Source: a virus (Duplodnaviria; Caudoviricetes). From it: a DNA stretch of 25,139 bases. Below the pieces are notes generated by a model. The model ran no database searches. It saw only the letters and a program-made list of their open reading frames with translations, and was not told the DNA's origin. Location of the stretch: the IMG/VR virus record IMGVR_UViG_3300016474_000309, positions 1 through 25,139 of that record, one strand, 5' to 3'. Shown here piece after piece: positions 1-18,551 of the stretch (the stretch's first letter is position 1; each line of letters opens with the position of its first letter). The position numbers were made by a program, and so were the translations under genes.

Positions 1-45
1 CGGTTTCTAATCCGTCGGCCAGTGGTTCGAATCCACTCAGGTGTA
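1..45 (+). tRNA. 3' half of a tRNA, probably tRNA-Arg(TCT); likely prophage attachment site (attL/attR)
   Basis: Perfect T-arm AGTGG-TTCGAAT-CCACT (21-37), 5-nt variable loop CGGCC (16-20), acceptor 3' strand CAGGTGT + discriminator A45, anticodon loop TT-TCT-AA (4-10). No encoded CCA. Truncated by the window edge and directly upstream of an integrase. Confidence 0.8.
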
Positions 46-160
46 CTAAACACAACCATTTGGTTTTACAAGTGATATGTTGTTGTGGTTCTTTTCATCA
101 ACCACAATCCGTATCGGAGTTTTCAGGTATATGTACTCAATAACCATCTTCAGCGACGAC

Positions 161-1198
161 ATGGGAAGACCCAAGAATCAGATCCCAACTCTGCGTCATC
201 ACAAGGTTTCCGGCCAATCGTTCATAGTTTGGGCCGGTCAGACTGTTTATTTAGGCAGTCACGGGTCTCTGGAGTCCATTGACAATTACAATGAAACCGT
301 CAAAAACATCAAGCTGTATGGCAAAACCGTTGTTGATAAAACTGACAAGGTGACGTTGAAAACGATCGGATTGAAGTATCTGGAATCACTACCTGAAAAC
401 TACCCGAAAACTTCCAAGGAACCGATCGCGATCCGCCGCGCCATTGAGGAGTTGATCCGTTGGTCAGGCGACGACCCGGCGGAGTCGTTCAAGCCTGCCA
501 AGTTTCTGGAGCTGAGAAAAACATGGGTCGATAAGGGCCGAAGCGTCAAGACCATCGGCAACTACCACAGCTATGTCCTCAATATGTTCCGCTGGGCGGC
601 CATCATGGAGCTTGTTCCGGCATCGGTTTGGCATGCACTTCAGGCCATACCGAAATTAAAACCGAACCGATCGCCGGCCAAGAATCCCAAGGTAATCCAT
701 CCGGTTGAGTGGAAGGACGTGGAGGCGGTCAAGCCGTTTGTGGCCACGCAGGTCTGGGACATGATCCTGCTTCAATGGTGGACAGCCATGAGGTCAGGCG
801 AGTTGCTCAGCATGACGCTGGCAGAAGTTGAGGATGGTGTTTACCGGCCGGCCAAGCATAAGAATGCCTGGCGAGGCCACAAGCGAGAGGTGTTTATTGG
901 CCCAAGAGCCAAGCCGATCATTCAGAAATATTCGAAAGGCAAAGATCCGCATGAATTGCTATTCACCGGATACACCAATAACTCCTATGGGAGGGCCATC
1001 AAAAGAGCGTGCAAGCGTGCCGGCATCGACTATTGGCACCCGCACCAGTTGCGCCACGCTGCCGCCGATCGTGCCCGCGATGCGTTTGGCCTTGATGCGG
1101 CACAGGCGGTACTGGGCCACAAGACAGCAAACACCACTGAGATATATGCCAAGGTGAAAAGAACTTTGGCCAAGAAGGCTGCGGAAGATCTAGGATAA
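161..1198 (+). CDS. int: Tyrosine recombinase (phage integrase)
   Basis: Catalytic motifs MRSGE (R), KHK (K), HQLRH (HxxR), LGH, EIY (Y). N-terminal 'PTLRHHKVSGQSFIVWAGQTVYLG' resembles the arm-binding domain of planctomycete integrases. The ATG at 161 (MGRPK) is preferred over the TTG at 77. Confidence 0.95.
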   Translation: MGRPKNQIPTLRHHKVSGQSFIVWAGQTVYLGSHGSLESIDNYNETVKNIKLYGKTVVDKTDKVTLKTIGLKYLESLPENYPKTSKEPIAIRRAIEELIRWSGDDPAESFKPAKFLELRKTWVDKGRSVKTIGNYHSYVLNMFRWAAIMELVPASVWHALQAIPKLKPNRSPAKNPKVIHPVEWKDVEAVKPFVATQVWDMILLQWWTAMRSGELLSMTLAEVEDGVYRPAKHKNAWRGHKREVFIGPRAKPIIQKYSKGKDPHELLFTGYTNNSYGRAIKRACKRAGIDYWHPHQLRHAAADRARDAFGLDAAQAVLGHKTANTTEIYAKVKRTLAKKAAEDLG

Positions 1199-2736: not shown

Positions 2737-4413
2737 TCACCCAGTTTGAAACACCGTTCTTGATACACGGCCATCAAACGTGATGGCGACAGTGTAAGAT
2801 CCCGAAGTTGAATATGTGTGAGATATAGACGCTAAGGCAGCTACGGACACTGGAGAAGAACCATCTCCAAAATCAATTGTGGCATTGGCCCCCATATTTG
2901 TTGGGAACACAGCAGTCCACGTCATGGTCTTTCCGTTTCGAGAAGTTAAGTTCATGGTGGCAAACGGATATGTATCTTCTCCGGTTGAACCCCACGGGTA
3001 GATGTTGGCGTTGGCCGTGCAAGTTGGATACTGAAGAGTGACACCTTCCACCGTTGGCGGCGGGTTAAAAAACCACAAACTGGGAAAATATCCCGATCCT
3101 GCTACTATGTTTTTCCACGTGTTCTGGCCAACCAAAACGTTGTTGTAGTAATAGGCGCAATGAACCCAAAGGATTTGAGATTGGTCACGGCTTGTGGACC
3201 AAGTAAACCCAGGCACGTTGGAATACGTTGGGTCCACGTTAAATATTTCATCTCCGCCTGCAAAGCACGTTGTAACAGTAGAACCCGAAACCATCAAGCA
3301 ATCGTCGGGAGGACGGACTCCAAAATCTCCTTGAAGATACTCATCAATCCCGATTGCCCACGGGTCGGGGTATGGATCATCCGGCTGAGTGCCGTCTGGG
3401 TTTTGTGGCAACACGTACCATGTTTTTACAACCATGCTTAAATTGACAGGGTTGTAAGTGGGGTTTTCTTCAAACCATTTCATTAGCCAAAACGATTGGC
3501 CGCCCGCATGTTGAAGTGTTCGATTCCAAACAATTTGCCCTTGGGGGTTAACAGAGTACCATTTTTGTCCAGCTTGATAAAACGGGGCTTGTGGGTCTGG
3601 ACCGGCTACATACGGGTTATCCCAAAACTCCAAGTTTTGAGCATACATGTAAGTCTCTACCGCTGCCCATTGATTTTGATATGACGAATCCGACAAGACC
3701 GCAAACCACGTTTGAAGTTTTACCCGAATGACGCGAGAACCGTCCAGAAATATGTAAGACTCCGAAGGCACGCGGGCCGCAATTGAGTTTTCAACAATCG
3801 CCGAATCTTTGTTGGTAAACCCGGCCGAATACGGTAAATTTCCTACAAATTCAATTTTACAATTGCCTAGCGAATTCACATTCAACGATTGTGGCAAAGC
3901 GCCCTGAGCATCATCAGAGCCGTATCCGTACAAATAGCCCAATTTAATTGGGCCTTGGAAATAGGCTACGCATGTGGACGCAGGAACATTTCCGCACGGA
4001 GAAAACTCGTCAGCTGGCTGAAGTGACCTCGCTGTATTTCCTAAAGTCCATAATCCCTTAAATGCTAAATCTGGCCCATAAACAGGCGGGCTTAACGGTG
4101 CTGAATTGCCAATGTTGGCGGCGTGCAAAACAAAAGATTGCCATGCACCACCAACGTCGTTTGGCACCTGTTGAACAGTTGGCAAATCCAAATAAGGATC
4201 AATTGTAGGGGCCAGCACTTGCGGAGAGCCGTACAACGTGTTGAAAAATCCTTGCCACGCAAAACCAGCATATCCACGTGCTTGCCGTAAAAGTCCGTTA
4301 TTGTCTGTGAATTGAAACAGGCGAAAGTCTTGAATGTTTTCCAAATATGGTTTGTTGGGCGCCACGGGGTTCACGACCCATTGGCCCTCTGTGTTTTTAA
4401 CATCCAGCCACAA
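2737..4413 (-). CDS. Putative receptor-binding/tail tip protein with C-terminal PKD domain (probably the 3' part of a frameshift fusion with 4488-4796)
   Basis: Last tail gene, aromatic/Pro-rich, lower GC than its neighbours. C-terminal IDFGDGS...SHTYSTSGSYTVAIT is the PKD signature. The frame stays open upstream to the T9 run at 4490-4498. Confidence 0.75.
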   Translation of the reverse strand: MWLDVKNTEGQWVVNPVAPNKPYLENIQDFRLFQFTDNNGLLRQARGYAGFAWQGFFNTLYGSPQVLAPTIDPYLDLPTVQQVPNDVGGAWQSFVLHAANIGNSAPLSPPVYGPDLAFKGLWTLGNTARSLQPADEFSPCGNVPASTCVAYFQGPIKLGYLYGYGSDDAQGALPQSLNVNSLGNCKIEFVGNLPYSAGFTNKDSAIVENSIAARVPSESYIFLDGSRVIRVKLQTWFAVLSDSSYQNQWAAVETYMYAQNLEFWDNPYVAGPDPQAPFYQAGQKWYSVNPQGQIVWNRTLQHAGGQSFWLMKWFEENPTYNPVNLSMVVKTWYVLPQNPDGTQPDDPYPDPWAIGIDEYLQGDFGVRPPDDCLMVSGSTVTTCFAGGDEIFNVDPTYSNVPGFTWSTSRDQSQILWVHCAYYYNNVLVGQNTWKNIVAGSGYFPSLWFFNPPPTVEGVTLQYPTCTANANIYPWGSTGEDTYPFATMNLTSRNGKTMTWTAVFPTNMGANATIDFGDGSSPVSVAALASISHTYSTSGSYTVAITFDGRVSRTVFQTG

Positions 4414-4796: not shown

Positions 4797-5302
4797 GTCG
4801 TTGGTGGAGCTGACCCACCCCTCACGTAATCGTATTGGGCCACCGTTGGAATGCCGGTGAGCGTGTAAGAGAACGAGATCTTGGAGACGTCGTTGACATC
4901 AGCCGAGACCTTGATATTGGAGAAGTAGCCAAAGCAGGCGTGATAGACCGTGCCCACCAGCACCTTGAAATAGTATTGGCCAGATGTGAATGGTGTGATG
5001 GCACCGGAATAGGTCGGCACCACCGAGGACGGTTGCACGTAACCTTCCACGGTGCCCGAGAGCGTTGCGTTCTCCACCCAGCCATCCACAAAACCGTTGA
5101 AGGCCGTGGTGGGTGCCGTGGCCACAGTGGCCGATTCTTCCACAGAGATGGTGCCATTCAAAATCGAGTTGAGCGTTGTGGGAACGCTGCCATCAGACGG
5201 GGCCGGTGCAAAGCCAAACCACTGGAAGCTCACGCGCTGGCCGGCCATGTTTTTAAGGCCGGCACCAGTGAAAACCGTGTTGGTGTAAACAATCGCCGCC
5301 AT
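4793..5302 (-). CDS. Tail protein with tube-like fold (distal tail / tube paralog)
   Basis: Beta-rich. Motifs GTISVEESAT..TAPTT and KVSADVNDVSKISFSYTLTG parallel those of the tube protein at 8588-9043. Confidence 0.6.
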   Translation of the reverse strand: MAAIVYTNTVFTGAGLKNMAGQRVSFQWFGFAPAPSDGSVPTTLNSILNGTISVEESATVATAPTTAFNGFVDGWVENATLSGTVEGYVQPSSVVPTYSGAITPFTSGQYYFKVLVGTVYHACFGYFSNIKVSADVNDVSKISFSYTLTGIPTVAQYDYVRGGSAPPTT

Positions 5303-5314
5303 CGGATCACCTCA

Positions 5315-6511
5315 TCAGTACGGGTTGACGGTCGGGCTGGCCCAGACGGCGGCAGGGTCAAAACCGTAGAAAAAGAGCGTGGCGGCCGCCGATGTCCAGA
5401 AGTCCGCATACTGATAAACGCGGTTGAGATAACTGTCGTAGCTGTTGGTCAGGGTCAGGTTGGGATACATGCCGGCCGGTTGCAGCGTGCTGTTGGAGCC
5501 GTTGGACGTGGCCATTGGCGGCCGATACGTGGCCCAGCCGTAGCTTGTCTGCTTCCATGTGATGTTGCTGGTGGAGTTGCTGGTGGCCGCTGGTGTGATC
5601 GGGATCAAATTCCAGTCGCGGTCGCGGGCCGTGAAGTGGTGCGTGATCTTGTAGCCCATATAGCCCAGCGGGCTGATTGCGGACTCCACGTCAGAACCTT
5701 CATACAAGAGCGATCCGGCCGGCCACTGGACGGTATCATGCAGGTTGATCTTGCCACGCAGTGACCGCATCAAGGTCAGGTTGACCAGCGATGCGTCCAC
5801 CCAAGGGAACTCGATGGTGATCGTGTCCTTTGGCTCGATTAACGTCTGGCCTTTGGATAGCGGGTAAAGTTGCAGATAAGACCAGTTGGGATCGGTCCAC
5901 GTCGAGGTGTTGGCCGGCGTGCTGGCCGTGATCACGCTGATGCCGCTTCGGCCTGGCGTGTCGAGAGGGTAAGTGATGTTGCTCACCGTGCCGGTGCGGG
6001 TGTCCTGAATGCAGTACCCTGTCCGGTCGGCACCCATCTCCTGAAATTCGCCGGTGCCATTGACCGAGACATAGGCGCAGTTGATGCCAAACGAGTTGAC
6101 AGGCTTGAGCATCCATTCCACGTCCACGATGCACGTACCAGCGTTCTGAATCGTGTTGGAGGCTGTGCTGTTGCCGTTCCAGATGCCGTCGGCTGAATTA
6201 CCCGAGACGGAATCCATCGCGTTGGGTGCAAAGCCAGAGACGGGCTTGATGCTCATCCGCTGGCTGGTCAGTTGCGGGATCAGTGAATGTTCGATCTGGG
6301 TCTTGTAGGCATAGTCTGGCGATGGCGTTCCGCTGGTGGCGGCCGCTGCTGCGGCAAACCTCAGCTTCGGGTCGATCAGGTTGCGAGCCTTCAGCAGCGT
6401 GTCGGTGGTGTAAGGTGCACGCCATCGGCCGGAATAGGTCAAGGTGTTGGCCTCACCTGAGTATCCAAAGCCTTCGGTGTGCGGTATCCAGTTCTGGAAG
6501 ATCGTGGACAT
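5315..6511 (-). CDS. Tail tip/hub protein
   Basis: 398-aa beta-rich, S/T/N-rich protein immediately downstream of the tape measure gene (assigned by synteny). Confidence 0.65.
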   Translation of the reverse strand: MSTIFQNWIPHTEGFGYSGEANTLTYSGRWRAPYTTDTLLKARNLIDPKLRFAAAAAATSGTPSPDYAYKTQIEHSLIPQLTSQRMSIKPVSGFAPNAMDSVSGNSADGIWNGNSTASNTIQNAGTCIVDVEWMLKPVNSFGINCAYVSVNGTGEFQEMGADRTGYCIQDTRTGTVSNITYPLDTPGRSGISVITASTPANTSTWTDPNWSYLQLYPLSKGQTLIEPKDTITIEFPWVDASLVNLTLMRSLRGKINLHDTVQWPAGSLLYEGSDVESAISPLGYMGYKITHHFTARDRDWNLIPITPAATSNSTSNITWKQTSYGWATYRPPMATSNGSNSTLQPAGMYPNLTLTNSYDSYLNRVYQYADFWTSAAATLFFYGFDPAAVWASPTVNPY

Positions 6512-6513
6512 AA

Positions 6514-7935
6514 TTAAACTCCAAACGCTGTTTTTAAGCCGCCACGATCTGAGGCCAGCGTGGTCTTGCTGGTCACCGACTGCACGCCGGTATCCTTCGG
6601 CGATGTGTTTTGTGCGATCCGTTCCAGTACGGCCAACTGCTTGTCCGGCTTCTGACCAAAGACGCCAGAAAGCAGAGAGCTGAAGGCATGGCTGGATGCC
6701 TTCATGGCCGTGGAGACGGGTTGCTGCATGGCACCCAGTGCACCCGGGCCGGTCTTGGATCCGGTGTCGGCGGTGAACTTGGCCTTCAGGTCGTTGACCT
6801 GGGTATCCATCGCGGCCTTGGATGCGTCGATGCGGGCTTGTGCCTGGGCGTTTTCATCACGCAGGATCTGCTTGGCACCGCCCATGTCCTGCTTTTCAAC
6901 CAAGCCCAGCGTGAGCTTGTTGGCAACGGATGTGAGCGTTTCCCAGATCGACAGGAAAACGATGGAGATCTTGTTGGTCAGGATCTGCCATGTATCCGAT
7001 GCATTGACCAGATACGGCACGATGCTGGCGGCAAAGCCTGCCACAGAGGATGCCGCATTTGTCAGGGCCGTCACCATCGGCTGGATCAGGGCGTCGGCAG
7101 CAATTGAGATATAGCTGAAAGCCGTGTAAAGGTGTTCGCCAAGCTGCTTGAACGCACCGCCGTTGGCCACCTGCATGATGGTGTCGGCAAACTTGCCACG
7201 GAAGTATTCAAACGCCTGACCAACGATCAGCAGGTCTTGGCCGATGCGAGCAGATGCGGCGTTGGTCTTGGTGTCGGCAGCGCGGCCAAGGTTGGCATAG
7301 CCATATTTGGTGCGATCAAAATCGCCCTGCGCCCGCTGAGTCTTGGCCATGAACTTGTCGATGACATACTCGGCACGGGTCTTGCCGGAGGTGGCTTGAT
7401 CTTCCGCCGATGCATCCACGCCATACTTGCGGAGGATCTGAAACTCGCCCGCCATCGCCGAGGCAAGGTTTTCGCGGATCTGCTTGGAGTCGATATTATC
7501 CTGACTGGAAAGATCGGCCACGCGGGCCTCGACCTTTTCGGCCATGTTCTGGGCAATCTGTTTGCCGATCCCCTGGTTGGTCAACTGGTTGACCGTACCC
7601 ATGTAGGACTCAAGAATCTGGGCCTGATTGCCCAGCCCTTTCATCTCAAGCTCTTTGGCGAAATTCTTGGCACTATCGGCCGTGTCGCCCAAGAGAACAT
7701 CCGTCTTGGACAGGGTCTCGTTGAGCGTGGAAGCGTTTTCAATGCTGGAGCCGATGTTGTTGGCCACCAGCGAGAACGCACCGCCCACGCCCTTACTCAT
7801 GATGTTGCCAAGAGCTACAGCACCGACTTGCTTGGCAAAGCCAGAGACGGCTCCAAACGCCTTGGAGAGGCCAGCGGTCAGGCCGGAAAGATTGGTGCCG
7901 ATCGAGACGTAGAGCTTGGAGATCTCACCGGCCAT
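6514..7935 (-). CDS. Tail tape measure protein (473 aa)
   Basis: N-terminal MAGEISKLYVSIGTNLSGL is typical of TMPs. Ala/Gly-rich helical sequence following the chaperone pair. Confidence 0.9.
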   Translation of the reverse strand: MAGEISKLYVSIGTNLSGLTAGLSKAFGAVSGFAKQVGAVALGNIMSKGVGGAFSLVANNIGSSIENASTLNETLSKTDVLLGDTADSAKNFAKELEMKGLGNQAQILESYMGTVNQLTNQGIGKQIAQNMAEKVEARVADLSSQDNIDSKQIRENLASAMAGEFQILRKYGVDASAEDQATSGKTRAEYVIDKFMAKTQRAQGDFDRTKYGYANLGRAADTKTNAASARIGQDLLIVGQAFEYFRGKFADTIMQVANGGAFKQLGEHLYTAFSYISIAADALIQPMVTALTNAASSVAGFAASIVPYLVNASDTWQILTNKISIVFLSIWETLTSVANKLTLGLVEKQDMGGAKQILRDENAQAQARIDASKAAMDTQVNDLKAKFTADTGSKTGPGALGAMQQPVSTAMKASSHAFSSLLSGVFGQKPDKQLAVLERIAQNTSPKDTGVQSVTSKTTLASDRGGLKTAFGV

Positions 7936-8587: not shown

Positions 8588-9043
8588 TCAGTTGGCCAGT
8601 ACGGTCAGGTTGTTGGTCGTCAGATCGCCGTGGTTGACCAGCGACAAATCGACGTTCAGGATGTCGTTGGGATCAAGGCTGTGCTTGAGGTCGGTGATCA
8701 TGAACGCACCCACCTTGTTCATGCTGCCGGCCGTGATGTTTCCGGTGACGTAGTCGCCCTTTTTCAAGGCCCACGTGGTACCGTTGGCAAAGGGTGCCGT
8801 CAGGTTGGACTGGGATACGTAGGCGGAGACTTCCAGTTGCACCTTCTCGTTGCCGGGTGCCACCAGCGTGCCAGCCGTGTTGGTTGGAGCTTCGGCCGAT
8901 TCGACCGACTCATCAATCGATCCGCTCTTGATGACCAGGCTGATGGCCGTGGCGTTGGCCTGAATCACGCCACCAAGCGTGATGGGTGTCAGGAGGACGG
9001 TACCTCCCTTGAACGTTTGCGGGTTGCCCTTGGCAGCGGCCAT
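8588..9043 (-). CDS. Major tail tube protein
   Basis: 151-aa beta-rich protein upstream of the chaperone. C-terminal 'FMITDLKHSLDPNDILNVDLSLVNHG' tube-type motif. AAGGA RBS. Confidence 0.8.
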   Translation of the reverse strand: MAAAKGNPQTFKGGTVLLTPITLGGVIQANATAISLVIKSGSIDESVESAEAPTNTAGTLVAPGNEKVQLEVSAYVSQSNLTAPFANGTTWALKKGDYVTGNITAGSMNKVGAFMITDLKHSLDPNDILNVDLSLVNHGDLTTNNLTVLAN

Positions 9044-10920: not shown

Positions 10921-12363
10921 TTACTTGCTCTTCAGCACGCGGATGGCGTTGGGCTGAACAACACGGCCACCACGACGAGCACGAAGAACAAACTCATAAG
11001 AGCCGTTCTTGTATGCGGGCTGGTCGTTGACCTTGATGGTCGGGCTGACCCGATCCAGCATGTAATAAGCGGCCTTGAAATCGCCGTAGTACAGCGGCAG
11101 TGTGCCGGCCGTGACCGACAGGCTTGGCATGTTTTCCGAGATGATGATCGGACGGCCCAGCAGCGAACCGTTGGCCCACGTGGTACCGCCGCCAGGCGTG
11201 GCGCCAATGAAGCCATAGTTCGGCAGGAAGAGCGGACGGGACTGGCTATCGACCAGAGACGCGATCGCACCCAACGTGGACGAGTTCATCAGCCAGGCAC
11301 CTGTAGCACGGAACTGCTGCGGTGTCTGGTAGAACATGTTGATCACGTCCTGATACGTGATCACGGCACCCGTGGTGGTGGCGGTGATTTGCGTCACGAC
11401 ACCCGACTCGGTCAAGCCATAGGGTTGGCTGGAACCGGTACCGGCGATGATCGCGGCATCCGTAGCCACGGCCAGCGACTTTTGGAAGATGTCGGGGATC
11501 AGCGTGCTCAGGCCATAAGCGTTGTCTTCGAGGATCGAGATCGAAAACAGGCCATAGGCCCAGACTTCGTTGACGTTGATGTCGATCTGCTCAACCGTCA
11601 GGTTCGAGCCTTGATCGGTCGGGCTGGCCGGCGTTTCACCGCCCCACGACACCGTCACCGGATAGGCCGGATAGATGTTGTTGGTCGTCTTGACGCGGGG
11701 GAAGCGGGTTGTCAGCGTGGTGGTCGGGATGGTGCGGACAGCGTCCTGAAGCATGCCGGCCTGCGGAGGCGTCATGATCAGTTCGGACCACTGGATCGGC
11801 ACCAGCGCGGCACCGCCACCAGCGGTACCAGCGGCCACGCCTTCGGTGAATGCCTTGCGGACCAGCTCACCGGCACCGGCGTAGTCACGGCCACCAGACC
11901 GCATGAACTTGAGCACTTCGCGGGTGAACTGCGGCGTGCAAGCCTTGGTGATGGTTTCTTCGGAATAGCCTTCCGACAGGTAGGCTTCCACGGTCTCGGG
12001 CTTGGGTTCAATAGCGGGAATCAGGTTCTTGTTGGTCAGATTGACCTTGAACATGCCGGGCTGCGGCACGTATCCGCCGGGCGTGGCCTTCACGTCATAA
12101 ACGTGGCCAGGCCGATTGGCGGCCGGCACTTCGTTGGCCCATGCGTTGTTTTGTTCGATGGTCGCCTTGAGGGCAACACGGCTGTTTTCCAGCTCGGTCG
12201 CTTTGGTCACGGCGGCGTTGATCTCGGAAAGGCGGTCGCCCACCTTCTTCATTTCAACGGCTTCATCCGTGGTGTAGGTTTGCTTGGAAACAAGCTCGGA
12301 AGCACGCGCCTTCAACGTCGCGGCTTCGGCCTGCAATGCAGCCAGTTCGTGGTTTTCGGCCAT
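10921..12363 (-). CDS. Major capsid protein, HK97 fold, with N-terminal coiled-coil scaffold (delta domain)
   Basis: Motifs GGGAALVP, WGGE, IIAGTGSSQPYG, WLMNSST..L.DSQSRPL, LLGRPIIISENMP, YGDFK, RRGGRVVQPNA. Confidence 0.95.
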   Translation of the reverse strand: MAENHELAALQAEAATLKARASELVSKQTYTTDEAVEMKKVGDRLSEINAAVTKATELENSRVALKATIEQNNAWANEVPAANRPGHVYDVKATPGGYVPQPGMFKVNLTNKNLIPAIEPKPETVEAYLSEGYSEETITKACTPQFTREVLKFMRSGGRDYAGAGELVRKAFTEGVAAGTAGGGAALVPIQWSELIMTPPQAGMLQDAVRTIPTTTLTTRFPRVKTTNNIYPAYPVTVSWGGETPASPTDQGSNLTVEQIDINVNEVWAYGLFSISILEDNAYGLSTLIPDIFQKSLAVATDAAIIAGTGSSQPYGLTESGVVTQITATTTGAVITYQDVINMFYQTPQQFRATGAWLMNSSTLGAIASLVDSQSRPLFLPNYGFIGATPGGGTTWANGSLLGRPIIISENMPSLSVTAGTLPLYYGDFKAAYYMLDRVSPTIKVNDQPAYKNGSYEFVLRARRGGRVVQPNAIRVLKSK

Positions 12364-12427: not shown

Positions 12428-12467
12428 TAATGTCCTTACATTATCACCGTTAAAAGCGATTATGCAA
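12428..12467 (-). promoter_or_regulatory. Possible internal promoter for the capsid gene with an overlapping palindromic operator
   Basis: TTGCAT (12467-12462) - 16 nt - GATAAT (12445-12440). Inverted repeat TAATGT-N4-ACATTA at 12428-12443. Confidence 0.4.
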
Positions 12468-13254
12468 GTGCAGGAGGTTTGTTGGTCGGGTCAACCGTGG
12501 TAGCGACCACAGAATAAGCGTCCCAGCCCCAGCCCTGAACGTTCTTCTCGCCGATCCAGCAATAGCCATTCTGGCCCCAGCGGGTGCCCCAGCTATTCTG
12601 CATTTTGATCAGCCATTCACCGGTCGCTGTGCGTTTCATCCCCATGCCGCCACACACCGCGTGGTTGTGAGCACCGGCATGATTCTGTGGCCGGCCAAAC
12701 GAGTCCAGCGTGTTGAAATTGCCATTGACCGACAGACTGAAGTTGAACGGCTGACGGAGCTGCGCGGCGATGCACAGGCTCTTCCAGTCTGGCAGAGCGT
12801 AACCGATCTCGATTTTATGGTTGGCCGCGTTGGCCTTGGCGGCCGCTGAGATCATCGTCGGGTTGATCAGGCCATAAAGCACCAGCGGCTCTTCGCATGT
12901 GCCTTCACGGCTCAGCAAGGCCAGTGCGTCGGCAATGGACGAGCCGGTGTCCCAGCCATTGCAGAGCTTGGCATAAACGTACCAGGCCGAAAGAGCTTCA
13001 TAATGCTGGCCTGAGATCCATCGTGCGATCTCCAGCGAACTGGCGGCTGCGTGACCGTTGCAGGCACCACGGCCGTTCTGGTCCTTGATCTTGATCGGGT
13101 AGGCGGCATCGGTCGTCAGGTCATACTCACGCCACTCGGAGACGGGTATATCCGGCAACGCGGCCGCCGTCATCAGCCGTTGCGTCGATGGCCGGTTGCC
13201 GAGATACCGCCACTCACCGTCAGGCGTTGGCCATGCTTCGAGACGTGTCGTCAT
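12460..13254 (-). CDS. Papain-like cysteine peptidase (C1A family)
   Basis: IKDQNGRGACNGHA (oxyanion Q, catalytic C), NHAV (H), QNSWGTRWGQNGY (N). Confidence 0.9.
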   Translation of the reverse strand: MTTRLEAWPTPDGEWRYLGNRPSTQRLMTAAALPDIPVSEWREYDLTTDAAYPIKIKDQNGRGACNGHAAASSLEIARWISGQHYEALSAWYVYAKLCNGWDTGSSIADALALLSREGTCEEPLVLYGLINPTMISAAAKANAANHKIEIGYALPDWKSLCIAAQLRQPFNFSLSVNGNFNTLDSFGRPQNHAGAHNHAVCGGMGMKRTATGEWLIKMQNSWGTRWGQNGYCWIGEKNVQGWGWDAYSVVATTVDPTNKPPALA

Positions 13255-13781
13255 TTGACGGCCTCCGCCAGCTTGACGATGTCATCCAGCGTCTTTGGGC
13301 TGGCCACCTTGATCAGCTTGCCGCCACCATCCTGAAGGATCACGCACGGTGTGCCGCTGGTTGTAAGCTGCTGCCGAAAGCCAAGAGTGTCGATGTCCTG
13401 CTCGATGGTTGCGTAGGTGCGGAACTCGATGCCCTTGGCTTCCACGGCCTTTCTCAGGTCGGTACTGGTGCGCCATGCGGCCTGCTCCGGATTGTTCGCG
13501 TCCACGATCACGCTGAACCACTTGACGCCGGCAATCTGGTCAGGCACCGGCGGCGGCTTGGGCCGTGGTTTCTCCGGCTCAGGCACGACATCGGCCGAGC
13601 GGATCACCGTCACGCGGCCAGATTGCTTGCCGACCAGGTAGGTGTTACCGGCATCGCTGAACGTCCAGGACGGTTCAGAGATCACCGGCAGCGATTGAGC
13701 GGTCAGATCGGCCGGCGGTTCGGCCGATGACTGCTGAAAAGTTAAAAGTAAAGTAAGTAACGCCAGTAATGGCTTAGACAT
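13251..13781 (-). CDS. Secreted protein: signal peptide, Pro-rich linker, thioredoxin-like fold lacking CxxC
   Basis: MSKPLLALLTLLLTF signal; PEPEKPRPKPPPVP linker; 'GTPCVILQDGGGKLI' cis-Pro loop pattern. ATGA-coupled to the peptidase. Confidence 0.65.
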   Translation of the reverse strand: MSKPLLALLTLLLTFQQSSAEPPADLTAQSLPVISEPSWTFSDAGNTYLVGKQSGRVTVIRSADVVPEPEKPRPKPPPVPDQIAGVKWFSVIVDANNPEQAAWRTSTDLRKAVEAKGIEFRTYATIEQDIDTLGFRQQLTTSGTPCVILQDGGGKLIKVASPKTLDDIVKLAEAVK

Positions 13782-13803
13782 AAGTCGTCCTGTTTTGGGC
13801 CGG

Positions 13804-14064
13804 TCATCCTCGATAGGCGGCCTTGGCGGTCTCCTGGCATCCCTCGACCCATTGGCCAAGTTCATCAGCGGTAAACGTTGCGGCCTGTCCAGACCGGATT
13901 TTGGCGGCCAGCCGCTCCAACAGATCGGGGAGGATCTGCTGGAGGATCGGCACAATCACAATCTTGACGATCGGCCACAACAAAGCGAACGGGATCACGG
14001 GGAAACCCATGTTGGACCGTTCGTCAGCGTTGTTGACGATGTGCGGCGTGCTCATTTGCTGCAC
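13804..14064 (-). CDS. Small membrane protein
   Basis: Hydrophobic FPVIPFALLWPIVKIVIVPILQQIL segment. Exact start uncertain (14055 is ATGA-coupled). Confidence 0.6.
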   Translation of the reverse strand: MQQMSTPHIVNNADERSNMGFPVIPFALLWPIVKIVIVPILQQILPDLLERLAAKIRSGQAATFTADELGQWVEGCQETAKAAYRG

Positions 14065-14288
14065 TTGCCATCAGGGCAGATCACAACCACGGGAGCCACG
14101 GCCTGACGCTGGAAGAGCTTGGGCAGCACCAGACGCGACTTGGCAGGCTCGGTCGTCATGAAGATCACCGGTGCGGCCTTGGCAGGCTCGACCACGAACA
14201 ATTGAGGCACCGGCTTGGCAGCTTCGGCCTTTTCACACTTGCCAGACTGACATGCTTGCACGGCATAAATCACGTATTCAACGGCCAA
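14052..14288 (-). CDS. Small protein with two CxxGKC motifs
   Basis: CQSGKC and CPDGKC flank an Ala/Pro/Val-rich linker. TTG start with AGGTG upstream. Confidence 0.6.
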   Translation of the reverse strand: MAVEYVIYAVQACQSGKCEKAEAAKPVPQLFVVEPAKAAPVIFMTTEPAKSRLVLPKLFQRQAVAPVVVICPDGKCSK

Positions 14289-14396
14289 CGGATCACCTGA
14301 CCTTTCTGGGACAGAGTTGAACTGCCAAGGAATTCTTAGCAGTTGAAGAGTGCCGCCATGCTGCCTCTCGGCATGAGGCGGCCGGCGCTGGGGAGT

Positions 14397-14669
14397 TTAC
14401 TCGCAGACGCTTTTACACTTGATGCCCATCTCAAGTTTCTTGATGAGCACCTCGTTTTTCAGCTTGCTCTTGCGATACTCTCGCAGGCTGTGCCAGTGCA
14501 GATAGCCCACACCGGCGGTAAGGATGGCGGGTGTAATGTCCACCAGGTGATGCACCAGCGAGCCTTCCAGTGGCCCCGCCACAACGCCGATCAGCTCGCA
14601 GGCTGAGAGCGTGAACCAGATTGGGACAGGTAAAAAACCGATCCCATTTGCATCAGGCTGGTGATCCAT
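14397..14669 (-). CDS. Holin-like membrane protein
   Basis: Two hydrophobic segments and a basic C-terminal tail (REYRKSKLK). Confidence 0.5.
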   Translation of the reverse strand: MDHQPDANGIGFLPVPIWFTLSACELIGVVAGPLEGSLVHHLVDITPAILTAGVGYLHWHSLREYRKSKLKNEVLIKKLEMGIKCKSVCE

Positions 14670-14671
14670 CT

Positions 14672-14932
14672 TTATTCACCCTGTTTAAGGTAATAACTGC
14701 CGAGGTAACGAGTCTGAAGCCATGCCGCCAGCATCGTCAGGGCCGGGACAAAGATCGCCACCTTGGTCCCAGTCAGCCATTTATCAGACTGCTGGAGCAC
14801 TGAGACAACCACCATCAGCAGCACGTTAAAAAGGCCGCTGGATGCGATGGTCGCCAGTGCGATCCGCTTCAACTCAGATAGATTAACATAACCCTGAAGG
14901 CTTGGTAATCTCTTCAGCTCATCTTCGCTCAT
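14672..14932 (-). CDS. Holin-like membrane protein
   Basis: Two predicted TM helices (IALATIASSGLFNVLLMVVVSVL; VAIFVPALTMLAAWL). Confidence 0.55.
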   Translation of the reverse strand: MSEDELKRLPSLQGYVNLSELKRIALATIASSGLFNVLLMVVVSVLQQSDKWLTGTKVAIFVPALTMLAAWLQTRYLGSYYLKQGE

Positions 14933-15165
14933 GCGGGCCTCGGTGGTGCGGGTGGAAGTGGTTTGGTTGGCCGTGGCCAGACATAGTTTGGATCTGCCAG
15001 ATACTTGTTCAGATCCGGTTTTTCACAAGGGATCATGGCCTGGTAGTATTTCACCCAGACCAGCTCGTCGGCACTCCAGCGGGCGATGGCAAGCTGGCGT
15101 TGCTTGACCTTCTCCAGCGTGGCCTTGTCGAATGCCTGGCCTTTCATGAACTGTTCCAGCGTCAT
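14929..15165 (-). CDS. Hypothetical protein (78 aa)
   Basis: ATGA-coupled on both sides. Confidence 0.65.
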   Translation of the reverse strand: MTLEQFMKGQAFDKATLEKVKQRQLAIARWSADELVWVKYYQAMIPCEKPDLNKYLADPNYVWPRPTKPLPPAPPRPA

Positions 15166-15371
15166 TTGCTGTCACCTCTCGGGACTGTAAAACAATGTCC
15201 CAGCACCACGCCAATGCCCAAGGCAAAACCAAGCGTGTGCTGGTTGACTTCCCAGATGGATTGGCTCCACGTCATGCCGCCCGACTGCCACTTGACCAGA
15301 TCGACCAACAGAAGCACGATGGCGATGGTGATCAGCAAAATGAAGTTCTTGGCGGCGGTGTTGAAGGTCAT
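15162..15371 (-). CDS. Small two-TM membrane protein
   Basis: Start MTFNTAAK at 15371 overlaps the upstream stop (ATGA). Hydrophobic segments FILLITIAIVLLLVDLV and LGFALGIGVVLGH. Confidence 0.65.
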   Translation of the reverse strand: MTFNTAAKNFILLITIAIVLLLVDLVKWQSGGMTWSQSIWEVNQHTLGFALGIGVVLGHCFTVPRGDSK

Positions 15372-15814
15372 GGCAATGGCGGCCAATTCATGGGTGGCAA
15401 TTCGGCAATCAATTGTTCTGGCGTTGGAATTGGCCTTGTACCGGCCTGCACTTCGCCAAGAATCTGATAAGCCTTGATCCAGACCGCGTCTCGCCATGCT
15501 ACGCAGGCTTCGCCTTCCGCCTTAAATTGCGGTGTGGCTGAAAGTGCATATGTGCAGGCCGAAATAATTGTGTCGTATCCTCTCTCGCCTGCCACGGCGT
15601 TGAGATGGTCAGCCACCACTGCCTGAGCTTCAGCTTCAGTCATTGGCGGTGGCACGTAATCACTGGCCAGAATCCATGTGCCACCAAGCAGGTCCTGGCA
15701 AAATGCGATGCCGATGTCTTTGCTGAACACGCCATTTTGATCAAGGCAAACGCTGTCGTTCACCGTGATTGATTGAACAGATCTGCCATCTACCAGGCGG
15801 ATAAAATCAGCCAT
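15368..15814 (-). CDS. Fibre-associated protein (tail fibre assembly-type)
   Basis: HLNAVAGERGYDTIISACTYA...F.AEG.A.V.WRD.VW...RPIPT.E.LI.ELP..W is a motif I recall from genes next to phage fibre genes. Confidence 0.7.
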   Translation of the reverse strand: MADFIRLVDGRSVQSITVNDSVCLDQNGVFSKDIGIAFCQDLLGGTWILASDYVPPPMTEAEAQAVVADHLNAVAGERGYDTIISACTYALSATPQFKAEGEACVAWRDAVWIKAYQILGEVQAGTRPIPTPEQLIAELPPMNWPPLP

Positions 15815-15825
15815 CGTGGCCCTCG

Positions 15826-16773
15826 CTAAAAAGTAATGGAGCCTGACCCAGTAAACTGGTAAACGCGATACCCACCGGAAACCGTAATTGTAGGGCTGCC
15901 AGTGGTTGCTGATGCGGCTGGGTAGGCGTCTGGATAACGAATCACCACGATTCCAGATCCACCAGGCTGCCCCGCTCTTGCCGCGTTGGCACCTCCGCCT
16001 GAACCGCCGCCGCCGCCACCCGTGTTTGCAGTTCCGGCCACGCCATCGGCACCGGCAGCACCGCCAGCACCGCCGCCGCCTGTGCCTCCTGATCCGCCTG
16101 TTCCGGAATAAGCGCCGCCGCCGCCGCCGCCAGCGTAAGTTACAGACGACCCGGTGATGGAACTGGCCGTACCATTGCCGCCCGCCGCACCCGCAGCACT
16201 TGTGGCACTCGAACCAACTGACGAAGCGCCCCCGCCGCCGCTGCCACCGTCCACTGCTCCTGTTGACCCGCCAGCGTTGCCTTGTGATGGCACCGTGGCC
16301 GGCGTATTACCTGCGCCACCGGATGCGGAACGAGTCGCACCGCCACCAGATCCGCCAGCCAAACCCGTCTGGTTTACGCCGCCAGATCCACCTGCACCTG
16401 CCGCACCACCGCCACCGCCAGACGAGGTGATGGTGTAGAAGACGCTGTCACCGCCGTTTGAGCCTCTGGCACCGGCTGCGCCCGCCGCTCCGCCTGCCCC
16501 AACAGTCACAGTCAAAGCAGACCCCATTGGCACCAACAAGCCTGACCCGGTGCGAAAACCGCCTGCACCACCACCGCCACCGCCTTTGTCGTTCAGTGCG
16601 TGGCCGCCGCCGCCACCACCACCGGCCACGACAAGATAATCCACAAACGTGCCAAGCAGCGGCCATGTTCCGGCCTGCGAATATCTCGCCGCTTCATCCA
16701 GCGTCCAGATGCCCGGTGCCGATGTTTGTGTTGGCGTTGGCGTGTAGCCGATGTAAGAGCCGTTTTGCCTCAA
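15826..16773 (-). CDS. Glycine-rich virion appendage protein
   Basis: VDYLVVAGGGGGG...GGGGAGG...TVTVGAGG...GGSGIVVIRY...YRVYQFTGSGSITF matches the common phage glycine-rich domain. N-terminal 'SAPGIWTL.E' motif. Confidence 0.85.
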   Translation of the reverse strand: MRQNGSYIGYTPTPTQTSAPGIWTLDEAARYSQAGTWPLLGTFVDYLVVAGGGGGGGHALNDKGGGGGGAGGFRTGSGLLVPMGSALTVTVGAGGAAGAAGARGSNGGDSVFYTITSSGGGGGAAGAGGSGGVNQTGLAGGSGGGATRSASGGAGNTPATVPSQGNAGGSTGAVDGGSGGGGASSVGSSATSAAGAAGGNGTASSITGSSVTYAGGGGGGAYSGTGGSGGTGGGGAGGAAGADGVAGTANTGGGGGGSGGGANAARAGQPGGSGIVVIRYPDAYPAASATTGSPTITVSGGYRVYQFTGSGSITF

Positions 16774-17129
16774 GACAAGACCTCATAAGACGCGGTGCCT
16801 TGCAAGGTGTTATTAGCCGATGCTGTTAGGCGAAGCGATTCACCCTCCAGCAGATTGACTTTTGAGTCGCTTGTAATGACGACCAGCGTGGCGTTTGCAG
16901 CGATCACCACGCTGTAAGCCAGGTTGCTTTGCACGGCCGTGCCGTTGTAAACATCCACCGTAATGGCGGCCGGAATCGCTCCATAATTGGCCACATAAAG
17001 CGATGTCATGCGAACCGAAGTATTTGAGCCAGCCGAGTTGGAAACGATTGGCGTTGCCGCCGTTGTGGCCGTCAAACTGGTGCGGGACAGAGTGCAGTTT
17101 GCCGAGCTGAATATGTTTGGTGCCGCCAT
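16770..17129 (-). CDS. Small beta-sandwich virion protein
   Basis: MAAPNI...SLYVAN...ITVDVY...LAY.VVI.ANATLVV...LLEGESLR is a common phage structural protein pattern. GGAG RBS. Confidence 0.7.
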   Translation of the reverse strand: MAAPNIFSSANCTLSRTSLTATTAATPIVSNSAGSNTSVRMTSLYVANYGAIPAAITVDVYNGTAVQSNLAYSVVIAANATLVVITSDSKVNLLEGESLRLTASANNTLQGTASYEVLS

Positions 17130-17133
17130 TGCG

Positions 17134-18201
17134 TCATCTCCCAAAGATCATGCTGTAAGCGATGGCCTTGGCGGCCGAAATGCCTGTTCCGCCGCCACCG
17201 CCAGACGCATTTGCCGATAGAACGCCATTGGCGTCGATCGTCAGGTTGGCACCCACCTTGACACCGCCAAGAGTTGTTGTTGTTGCGTTCGGTAGTGAAT
17301 AAGCGGCCGGAATGGCCACCGAGATGACGCCATTGGCATCGGCCGAAATGTTGGCACCGATCTTCACGCCGCCAAGCTGCGTGGCGTTGGCCACCGGCAG
17401 AACCGTCAAGAATCCGCTGGGGTTGCCGGTGAGCGGGTAGTAACGTCCATCGGCATAGCTTTGAGTGAGCAGAGAATTGGCTGAATATGTCGTGTTGCCC
17501 GTGAGCTGCGTGAACGTGATGGATGTTCCAAGCAATTGCAGGCGTGTGCTGTTGCCGGTGCCATCGTTAAAGCTCAGGTTTACGGCCGACACGCTCGACT
17601 GCACCGACGACGTGGCGCAGGCCGTACCGTTGGTGTAGTTGGTGGCCGACAAACAGGCACTGAGGCCACCGGCCGTCACCTTGACGATTCGGCCAGGGTT
17701 GCCGCTTGCATCCAAAGAGGTCTGATACTGAAGATAAACGCTGGACGGAGTGCCGCTGGTCAGGCCAGAAGCGATCTGGGTCAGAGTGCCGTTGACCGCA
17801 GCTTGCAGCGTCGAGCCGGAAAACGTGCTGTTTCCCGTCCACGTGGTATTCGGCAGGATCGGCACATAGCCAGAGACGTTCGGCGTGTTGGCCGACAGCA
17901 CGCCATTGCCGTCGATCGCCAGATTGGCACCCACCTTCACGCCGCCAAGCTGCGTGGCGTTGGCCACCGGCAGGGTGTAATTGGCTGGCAGGATGACCGA
18001 CAGCACGCCGTTGGCAGTCACTGAGAGGTTTGCACCGACGATCACCGAGCCAGCCGTGTTGGCCGTAGCCAGCGGGATAATGGCACCGGATCGCAAGTTG
18101 ACGACAGATCCGCCAACCGGCCGCATTACCAAAACGCTGGACGTGCCGCGTATGGTAACGTTGGAAAAGCCGGCTTGGATCAGCGTCAGGTTGCTGCTCA
18201 T
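17134..18201 (-). CDS. Fibre protein with four 'LP.A....LGGVKVGANL....NGVLS' repeats (head/tail fibre type)
   Basis: Four internal repeats. C-terminal 'GISAAKAIAYSMIFG' anchor motif. Confidence 0.8.
   Translation of the reverse strand: MSSNLTLIQAGFSNVTIRGTSSVLVMRPVGGSVVNLRSGAIIPLATANTAGSVIVGANLSVTANGVLSVILPANYTLPVANATQLGGVKVGANLAIDGNGVLSANTPNVSGYVPILPNTTWTGNSTFSGSTLQAAVNGTLTQIASGLTSGTPSSVYLQYQTSLDASGNPGRIVKVTAGGLSACLSATNYTNGTACATSSVQSSVSAVNLSFNDGTGNSTRLQLLGTSITFTQLTGNTTYSANSLLTQSYADGRYYPLTGNPSGFLTVLPVANATQLGGVKIGANISADANGVISVAIPAAYSLPNATTTTLGGVKVGANLTIDANGVLSANASGGGGGTGISAAKAIAYSMIFGR
17362..17973. repeat. 39-bp identical direct repeat inside the fibre gene (17362-17400 and 17935-17973)
   Basis: CTTCACGCCGCCAAGCTGCGTGGCGTTGGCCACCGGCAG occurs twice. 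Confidence 0.9.
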
Positions 18202-18551
18202 TGGGTCACCTGTGGCGAGACATACGCGCCGCCTTCCACCGACCGCACCACCGTGCCGCTGGCGTTTGTCACCTTGATGTCATACAGGTAGTTGCCACCG
18301 GCAATGGCTGTAGTCTGCACCGCCGTCAGGGCCACCGTAGCCGTGCCGCCTGTGGCCGATGTGATCGTGATGCCGCCTGTGGCTGTCGAGAGCGTCGCCA
18401 CGGGTGTGACGCCATAATCCGACCGAATCTGCATCTTGATCGTGCAGCCGGTCAGGTTTAAAGGCGTGCCGTCGGTGTTCTGGAAGTTCAAGTAGAGTGC
18501 CCAGTCGGCACCCTGCTCGATGTCCGTGATCTGGTAATAGGCGGCACTCAT
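18198..18551 (-). CDS. BppU-N-like fibre anchor/adaptor protein
   Basis: IEQGADW...PLNLTGCTIKMQIR...GGITI...V.LTA.QT......YDI......V.R.VEG...VSPQVT motif. Confidence 0.75.
   Translation of the reverse strand: MSAAYYQITDIEQGADWALYLNFQNTDGTPLNLTGCTIKMQIRSDYGVTPVATLSTATGGITITSATGGTATVALTAVQTTAIAGGNYLYDIKVTNASGTVVRSVEGGAYVSPQVTQ

Follow-up and report, generated by a model that had tools for sequence, protein, structure and literature searches.

Asn-X-Thr sequons in the fibres of a temperate phage clade and a candidate planctomycete N-glycosyltransferase

Glycosylation of the adhesin HMW1 has a role in stability, and mycobacteriophage virions are reportedly glycosylated as well, with O-linked sugars placed on capsid and tail tube by phage-encoded enzymes (Freeman et al. 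2023, cited in PMC10877033). We describe a possible further case in a 25-kb virus record, IMGVR_UViG_3300016474_000309, whose 25,139 nucleotides (the window, meaning the whole stretch analysed) hold most of one temperate tailed phage. Its 355-amino-acid fibre protein (17134..18201, minus strand) is rich in the sequon N-X(not P)-S/T, and planctomycete genomes encode a predicted N-glycosyltransferase (NGT) that could read this motif. The mycobacteriophage system is similar in that tailed-phage particle proteins receive sugars in the host cytoplasm; it differs in that the link predicted here is to Asn in a sequon, the proteins are mainly fibres and tail proteins, and no transferase was found in the phage.

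The soluble NGTs HMW1C, ApNGT, and AaNGT, with their HMW1-type adhesins (PMC3012730, PMC10507012), are also among the closest known relatives of the proposed system. They resemble it in having a soluble enzyme that joins an all-alpha domain to a GT-B fold and has no array of tetratricopeptide repeats (TPRs), an elongated surface protein, rich in beta structure, that bears many N-X-S/T sites, and an enzyme gene beside that of a sequon-rich exported protein, an arrangement seen here in planctomycete genomes G006 and G323. They differ in that our candidate has a predicted activity, belongs to a planctomycete lineage, is only about 20% identical, and has a phage virion as its proposed second substrate. 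In AaNGT, Asp215 binds the Thr at +2 and Arg177 is required (PMC10507012); in the candidate, Arg177 is not seen and the His214/Asp215 pair appears in the sequence alignment as Gln/Glu.

Two further precedents concern phage proteins directly. Tagged AP205 particles are glycosylated to completion by ApNGT inside the cell (PMC6881330), so phage coat subunits modified by a cytoplasmic NGT are still able to assemble; those tags were artificial, the cells were E. coli, and the motif must be accessible unfolded or in loops (also bioRxiv 10.1101/2020.09.10.281741). In mycobacteria, experiments (PMC13445384) show that host MepM methylates a phage tail protein at an ELS motif. That phage likewise relies on a host enzyme acting on a tail protein at a short motif; here, the modification would be glycosylation at many sites, and it is predicted only. 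The fibre shares a roughly 30-residue LP-A...LGGVK repeat with the phi29-type head fibre (PF11133; PDB 3QC7), but the match (E 0.0017) is confined to this repeat, the remainder of the protein being mosaic, and the linker in this clade has gained Asn in sequon register.

The proposed system would be akin to known kinds: NGT-adhesin pairs, virion glycosylation, and host modification of phage tails. A literature search found no NGT-modified natural phage virions and no planctomycete HMW1C-like enzymes, with most subscription papers and supplements outside its scope (NGT-homologue tables there could already list the family). We favour, with moderate confidence, the reading that a cytoplasmic NGT of the host glycosylates the fibres and some tail proteins of this phage clade, rather than the whole particle.

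Sequons in the fibre and tail proteins

The fibre protein has four phi29-head-fibre-like repeats flanking a swappable middle module. Of its 31 Asn, 19 lie in sequons (residues 4, 14, 58, 74, 81, 108, 118, 124, 137, 188, 191, 208, 217, 236, 272, 284, 305, 319, and 331), against a shuffle mean of 7.0; one in 200,000 shuffles reaches 19. Ser plus Thr makes up 23.7% of the protein, and S/T follows Asn directly at 7/31. An earlier sequence-only reading of the window had arrived by hand at the same 19/31 and 7/31, with about 7 expected from about 24% Ser plus Thr, and had proposed the shuffling test; recount and shuffles agree with it. Its observation that the bias holds in the nonrepetitive middle also stood, with 9/13 Asn of residues 106-265 in sequons (p=0.004). 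The excess is Thr specific (N-X-T 14 versus 3.5 expected; N-X-S 5 versus 3.5). The bias had further been called specific to the +2 position, which holds across the clade but not for the window fibre by itself, where N-2 (13) and N+4 (12) are raised too; this rise fades clade-wide once duplicate sites are removed, to 1.13 and 1.19 versus 1.53 at +2. A DNA-level motif is an unlikely cause, since Thr codons are varied and the other frames carry no signal (few Asn occur in those frames). The predicted monomer model (pLDDT 39.7) is too low in confidence for placing sequons on a structure.

Comparison with relatives and controls showed that the motif excess is lineage specific and not a general fibre property. 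Five relatives (33-36 kb; completeness 96-100%) were examined over their whole length, and about 10 kb of the window phage's genome lies outside the window. All nine close fibre homologues have 1.9-2.6x the expected sequons, even with an unrelated middle module. In 37 clade fibres with duplicate sites removed, S/T stands at N+2 in 130/315 cases (1.53x; Thr 94, Ser 36), with Asp +2 at 0.96x and other offsets at 0.8-1.2x. The corresponding +2 values in two control fibre sets (108 and 250 proteins) are 1.18x and 1.06x for Asn and 1.12-1.14x for Asp. When X is hydrophobic, clade fibres have S/T at +2 in 51/102 cases for Asn versus 36/165 for D/Q/K/E/R, an odds ratio of 3.6 that compares with 1.4 and 1.2 in the same control sets. 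In the shared repeat linker, Asn is in sequon register in 5/5 distinct clade variants versus 6/32 outside (p=0.001). Among proteins with at least 17% Ser plus Thr, the window reaches 2.84x and the five relatives 1.81-2.25x; all six exceed all 65 control phage loci (median 1.08, maximum 1.76), which remained from 80 after four clade loci were set aside and 11 proved too small. Three loci with different tail genes and the same tRNA-Arg attachment type (L341, L344, and L346) have 2.0-2.3x. Target and control families could not be told apart by pairwise conservation of N and the +2 S/T, and the fibre as a single query against viral contigs gave 30 pattern matches with 0 confirmed. By eye, the same C-terminal domain has several sequons in fibres P0002 and P0007 and almost none in P0112, L004, and L005, as if sequons had been gained after module acquisition.

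Beyond the fibre, a 398-amino-acid tail protein after the probable tape measure (5315..6511, minus strand) was the sole other standout among 33 window open reading frames (ORFs) tested, with 11/26 Asn in sequons (p=0.0065). Its enrichment drops with distance among homologues, from 3.6x at 81% identity to 1.0-1.7x at 34-48%. The probable tail tube protein (8588..9043, minus strand; labelled from size and position only) has 5/14, all N-X-T, and its family has 13 versus 5.0 expected with duplicate sites removed. An LtfC-like beta-sandwich, a probable fibre adaptor (18198..18551, minus strand; PF23926 below cut-off, phrog_1084/phrog_3304), has 2/5 in the window and 5-6 of 8-10 in relatives. Homologue searches with the LtfC-like protein and the tail protein gave 8 and 9 proteins, respectively, none with an assigned host. 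The small Ser/Thr-rich protein directly after the fibre (16770..17144, minus strand; likely start ATG 17129) has 5/11 (p=0.1) and no family match in Pfam/phrog scans, its virion role being suggested by position; the Gly-rich second fibre-like protein (15826..16773, minus strand; PF21722) has 3/9, not significantly enriched. For internal or nonvirion proteins, the sequence-only reading had counted portal 1/20, TerL 1/13, protease 1/9, and C1 peptidase 1/17. These counts are correct, but against expectations of 2.4, 1.6, 1.0, and 2.0 the proteins are unenriched rather than depleted.

Pooling 28 clade structural families gave N-X-T 231 versus 129.4 (about 1.8x), N-X-S 107 versus 109.9 (0.97x), and D-X-T 72 versus 78.6 (0.92x), a restriction to Asn and Thr. 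Without the five head-fibre-type families, N-X-T is still 151 versus 88.4. Five internal or assembly families have 9 versus 11.2 and 111 other families 76 versus 71.4; classes were assigned by function after an earlier enrichment result had been seen, with unenriched structural families retained. Tail modules cut by position, from head-tail adaptor to tail end, have 1.41-1.82x in the clade.

The likely host lineage and the NGT-like family

The attachment (att) sites of the clade are of planctomycete type. At positions 4..45 (plus strand), the window carries the 3' half of a tRNA-Arg(TCT) gene, a probable attP core that differs at three positions from tRNA-Arg genes of planctomycetes (G006 and four more genomes). 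It adjoins a tyrosine integrase gene (77..1198, plus strand; PF00589, phrog_1) that marks a temperate phage. A degenerate version of the core matched seven loci: four in planctomycetes, one in Verrucomicrobiota, and two untitled. The closest match within the planctomycete family examined, G006, has the NGT-like enzyme. For relative G002 the site is tRNA-Lys(CTT), with a 42-nt core that 88/121 genomes of G006's family have within three mismatches and only 3/121 exactly (G077, G280, and G391); G077 has an intact tRNA at the matching site. Eight of 15 viral contigs of this att type have the exact G002 variant, one with a capsid 84% identical to that of the window. Six of the eight with enough structural genes show 2.0-2.6x and two with few sites 0.87x and 1.6x, all being close kin rather than independent cases. 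No contrast could be drawn with viral contigs whose att variant is that of enzyme-negative hosts, since almost no structural genes lie in their flanks. Within the clade, att sites alternate between tRNA-Arg(TCT) and tRNA-Lys(CTT) (window 4-45; G001-G003 near their integrases), and the integrases are divergent (30-37% identity).

These sites suggest that the hosts of the clade are likely planctomycetes. The window phage's own host is indicated by near att matches only; the relatives' link is exact. The family of G006 would be Isosphaeraceae, going by one homologue's label. The window capsid had no match in genome contigs and one distant prophage match (28%) in 401 genomes of the class, and DNA and spacer comparisons of the window with five NGT-positive genomes gave chance-level matches only.

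G006 encodes about eight TPR-type GT41 genes plus one protein without TPRs (no TPR Pfam match), on contig C117 (L169, 292-2199) and 616-635 amino acids long. Its best PDB sequence matches are ApNGT and AaNGT (3Q3E, E 3e-23; 8P0Q, 2e-20), followed by SPINDLY (1e-8) and OGT (6e-5). The predicted model (pLDDT 93) has an all-alpha domain and a GT-B fold over its full length, with no TPR array. It aligns with ApNGT/AaNGT at TM 0.78-0.81 versus about 0.55 for OGT/SPY, and at Z 38.4-39.4 (554-559 residues, root mean square deviation 2.9-3.1) versus at most 31.9 for others. The nucleotide-side Lys and His positions of NGTs align, AaNGT Asp215 aligns with Glu212 (acidic in 75/91 family rows), and His214 aligns with Gln211. 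Fold and alignment identify the protein as a predicted HMW1C/ApNGT-type NGT and a candidate reader of the sequons, and we infer that it is active with N-X-T specificity. Pfam HMW1C_N (PF18071) was silent in 5/5 genomes including G006, and in the control too, so that scan is uninformative.

The enzyme occurs in 18/401 class genomes and in 9/121 of the family (of these nine, one is broken over two frames and another truncated where its contig stops). It is concentrated in the genus of G077, which holds the exact att match of G002: 5/8 genomes versus 4/113 elsewhere in the family (Fisher 3e-5). STT3 was over cut-off in 0/5 candidate hosts, all draft genomes, while the control matched in 4/14. The sequence-only reading had advised a host search for GT41 and other glycosyltransferases and had supposed a cytoplasmic HMW1C/ApNGT-type enzyme of phage or host. 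There is now a concrete candidate in the likely host lineage; none of STT3 type was found in the five candidate hosts, and none in the phage sequences scanned. In agreement with that reading, Pfam and phrog scans found no glycosyltransferase among 32 window ORFs. PF13844, a weak probe for the NGT-like family, matched 0/5 relatives. The relatives' contigs are absent from the NGT-profile matches, and their gene lists, inspected by eye and not all profile scanned, showed no transferase.

A probable substrate of the host's own lies next to the gene. In G006 the enzyme is head-to-head with a 2026-amino-acid immunoglobulin-like (Ig)/dockerin surface protein (L169, 2397-8477) that has N-X-T 55 versus 28.9 and N-X-S 16 versus 21.1; this protein, found also at L302, L303, and L304, has about 2x N-X-T and an Asn:Asp ratio of about 5:1. 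In G006 and G323 the large exported-type neighbour has N-X-T at 1.9-2.0x with N-X-S flat, a phage-like signature, and close orthologues occur only in enzyme-positive G006, G323, G125, and G303. One pattern search (1/121 family genomes) used a pattern shaped after G006 was seen and is not independent. Generic exported planctomycete proteins were not enriched in enzyme-positive or enzyme-negative genomes (18 versus 16.0; 36 versus 30.1). A 3x-enriched protein near the G295 enzyme was not counted, being pentapeptide-repeat-like with intrinsic N-L-T; at that locus (L253, 14312-18011, contig C25) such proteins have 91/147 Asn in sequons near the split NGT-like gene, the repeat itself yielding N-L-T/S. 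In G077 the NGT-like gene is first in a nucleotide-sugar operon. There (L234, 9856-19875, contig C31) and in G125 (L244, 8895-12645, contig C134) it heads genes for a GHMP kinase, epimerases, a thiamine pyrophosphate-dependent pair, a DegT aminotransferase, and a B12 radical SAM protein, and has a LamG-like gene facing it; an unusual donor sugar may be used. Elsewhere in G006 (L163, 5764-16036, contig C119) lie four TPR genes in tandem, of which two encode GT41 domains and one a GT9 domain. Several of the NGT-like homologues P0121-P0240 (35-40% identity) are labelled as cyanobacterial, which extends the family beyond planctomycetes.

Related phages carry the family themselves. Among 21 viral loci that encode it, seven are temperate phages and 14 are larger phages. 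Five temperate carriers were compared, and to a varying extent they have terminase, portal, capsid, Mu F, protease, or C1 peptidase genes in common with the window. The temperate genes lie in the head region (L356 4908-6713; L357; L358/L359 about 4900-6731; L360 3937-5751; L361; L362), and in three annotated loci the NGT-like gene stands among head genes with a GT2 gene, as in L358 (terminase, portal, Mu F, NGT-like, GT2, protease, capsid). L356-L362 have GT2 alongside, L361 with radical SAM and methyltransferase genes as well, and are candidate phage-encoded virion N-glycosylation cassettes. All seven temperate copies keep Gln211/Glu212. Tail genes are present in three temperate carriers, two of which show enrichment (1.84x and 2.63x); two further carriers have unenriched second-type fibres only. 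In the larger phages (L363-L376, 22-232 kb) the gene belongs to a divergent clade, usually right after a methyltransferase-domain gene; 13/14 copies are without the acid that would read +2, and their acceptor may differ. Three of the four larger phages examined whole are flat (0.77-0.96x). Phage-carried copies support a virion role for the enzyme family, but with no clean correlation.

Probable host glycosylation and its alternatives

Under host glycosylation, fibre and some tail subunits would be made in the cytoplasm and meet the host NGT while still unfolded; the enzyme would put a hexose on the Asn of N-X-T, with folding and assembly afterward. The phage would thereby borrow the host's surface-protein glycosylation pathway without encoding a transferase. 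The window phage's own host would then have the enzyme, and virion sites would be occupied. Purpose is the weakest step: sugars might stabilise or solubilise thin, nearly uncharged, beta-rich fibres and provide a host-like sugar surface, a guess by analogy with HMW1.

Many results weigh against this reading, the first of them from the particle. The major capsid protein (10921..12363, minus strand; HK97 type by Pfam) has 5/24 versus 3.7 expected and is not enriched. The PKD-domain tail-end protein (2737..4413, minus strand; assigned by Pfam) is exterior yet unenriched (4/40 versus 5.4), an internal counterexample, and LamG-type second fibres in the clade are not enriched either. The sequence-only reading's picture of a sugar-coated whole particle was accordingly too wide, given these proteins and the portal, and part of the tail signal reflects a general Asn-X-Thr bias: prophage tails from seven enzyme-negative hosts already reach 1.35x (73 versus 54.2), so the tail-wide contrast is modest, and Ser/Thr-rich proteins of prophages in such hosts reach 1.5x (38 versus 25.3). 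The fibre signal is strong and lineage specific, the tail-wide signal modest, and the capsid signal absent.

On the host side, the exact window att core occurs in 0/401 class genomes and in 5/401 at three mismatches, and only one of the five is an enzyme match. The att site of relative G003 is nearest those of G050 and G019 (two mismatches), both without an enzyme match; these and G391, drafts in the host genus, had no NGT-like match. Sequon avoidance in host proteomes is not clear (0.84/0.98 in enzyme-positive versus 0.95/0.92 in enzyme-negative samples), and host-wide avoidance suggested by G006 (0.69) was dropped, since negative G085 gave 0.60. Weak homologues of the surface protein show D-X-T at 1.6-2.2x in G205 and G299, which are enzyme-negative, and N-X-T at 1.6-2.3x in G153 and G149, for which no full-length enzyme match was obtained; this makes Asx-X-Thr structural in that family. 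As for the enzyme, identity to proven NGTs is 19-21%, and it scores 103 bits against a cut-off of 1000 for the NGT equivalog NF049992, placing it in a distant sister family outside the Pasteurellaceae equivalog. In the sequence alignment no Arg stands at the place of AaNGT Arg177, whose role might be taken by the invariant basic residue 151. Among carriers, temperate G432 keeps the acid yet has 1.11x, and larger phage G436 has 1.88x though its copy is without the acid. Phages of one clade and genomes of one genus are also not independent samples.

The strongest alternative, less likely in our view, is structural: thin fibres and tail proteins would use Asn-X-Thr to start a beta-strand or make a turn, repeats and an Asn-for-Asp shift in the lineage would have amplified it, and the host NGT would serve host proteins only. 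The even-offset bias of the window fibre fits this, as do its Asn:Asp count (31 to 6), the 1.35x in prophage tails, the Asx-X-Thr habit of the host's beta-rich surface protein, and a repeat-family-wide G-x-N-L/I-S/T motif into which 3/19 fibre sequons fall. Among 110 distant repeat-sharing proteins listed (of 898), 12 reach at least 2x. Pro at X is not avoided: 6/12 Asn-Pro sites in clade fibres have S/T at +2, although sites are few and unmodified ones need no purging. However, the control values of 1.06-1.18x for Asn and 1.12-1.14x for Asp are too small for an Asp-to-Asn swap to give 2-4x. The effect also survives the hydrophobic-X control, occurs in unrelated folds, shifts register within the repeat linker and tail-protein loops, and fades in distant tail-protein homologues.

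We regard it as distinctly improbable that the motif was selected as a tag for another reader from host or helper, be it a TPR-type GT41 enzyme, a membrane oligosaccharyltransferase at lysis, or a non-sugar modifier, or as an unmodified Asn/Thr-rich surface that binds host glycans. The TPR-type genes of G006, tolerance of Pro at X, the lack of a clear Arg177 counterpart, and the three host-genus members without an NGT match all speak for such a reader. Yet no STT3 exceeded the cut-off in the candidate hosts, and GT41 enzymes of TPR type look like O-transferases. The one fold of sequon type that was found follows the host genus, and related phages carry it among their head genes. Very improbable is a relic of ancestors with their own NGT, now unused. 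In its favour, the enzyme gene of related temperate phages lies at nearly the same place in the genome, and no copy was found in five near-complete clade genomes; against it, enrichment extends to newly exchanged middle modules and tail-end proteins, and likely hosts supply the enzyme.

Other window genes and wider meaning

Besides the integrase, the window encodes a tail module, HK97-type capsid, C1 peptidase, fibre genes, prohead protease, Mu F, portal, and terminase. The fibre protein scores 28 bits against PF11133 (cut-off 24.6, E 1.8e-6), on one 31-residue repeat only, and weakly matches the head fibre of PDB 3QC7 (E 0.0017, as above); attachment to the head is possible or, given the LtfC-like neighbour, to the tail. 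Between capsid and fibre genes (12460-15497) lie a papain-like C1 peptidase, a Pro-rich partner, and several small membrane-like ORFs, a set that also occurs in other planctomycete-type phages and is a possible lysis cassette.

A broader, tentative idea, to which we give rather less than even credence, is that planctomycete phages N-glycosylate virions through an undescribed NGT family in two ways. Some would carry their own enzyme and a GT2 extender among the head genes; others would have dropped the enzyme and use Asn-X-Thr tags to hijack the host pathway, so that the particle would wear host glycan and host range would depend on the enzyme.

If host glycosylation is correct, a tailed phage from nature would have sugars attached to Asn at sequons by an enzyme of its host. 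The range of soluble NGTs would then take in environmental planctomycetes and the viruses that infect them, in addition to the adhesins of pathogens, new NGTs would become available for cytoplasmic glycoengineering, and sequon content would be a clue to host and modification in metagenomic phages.

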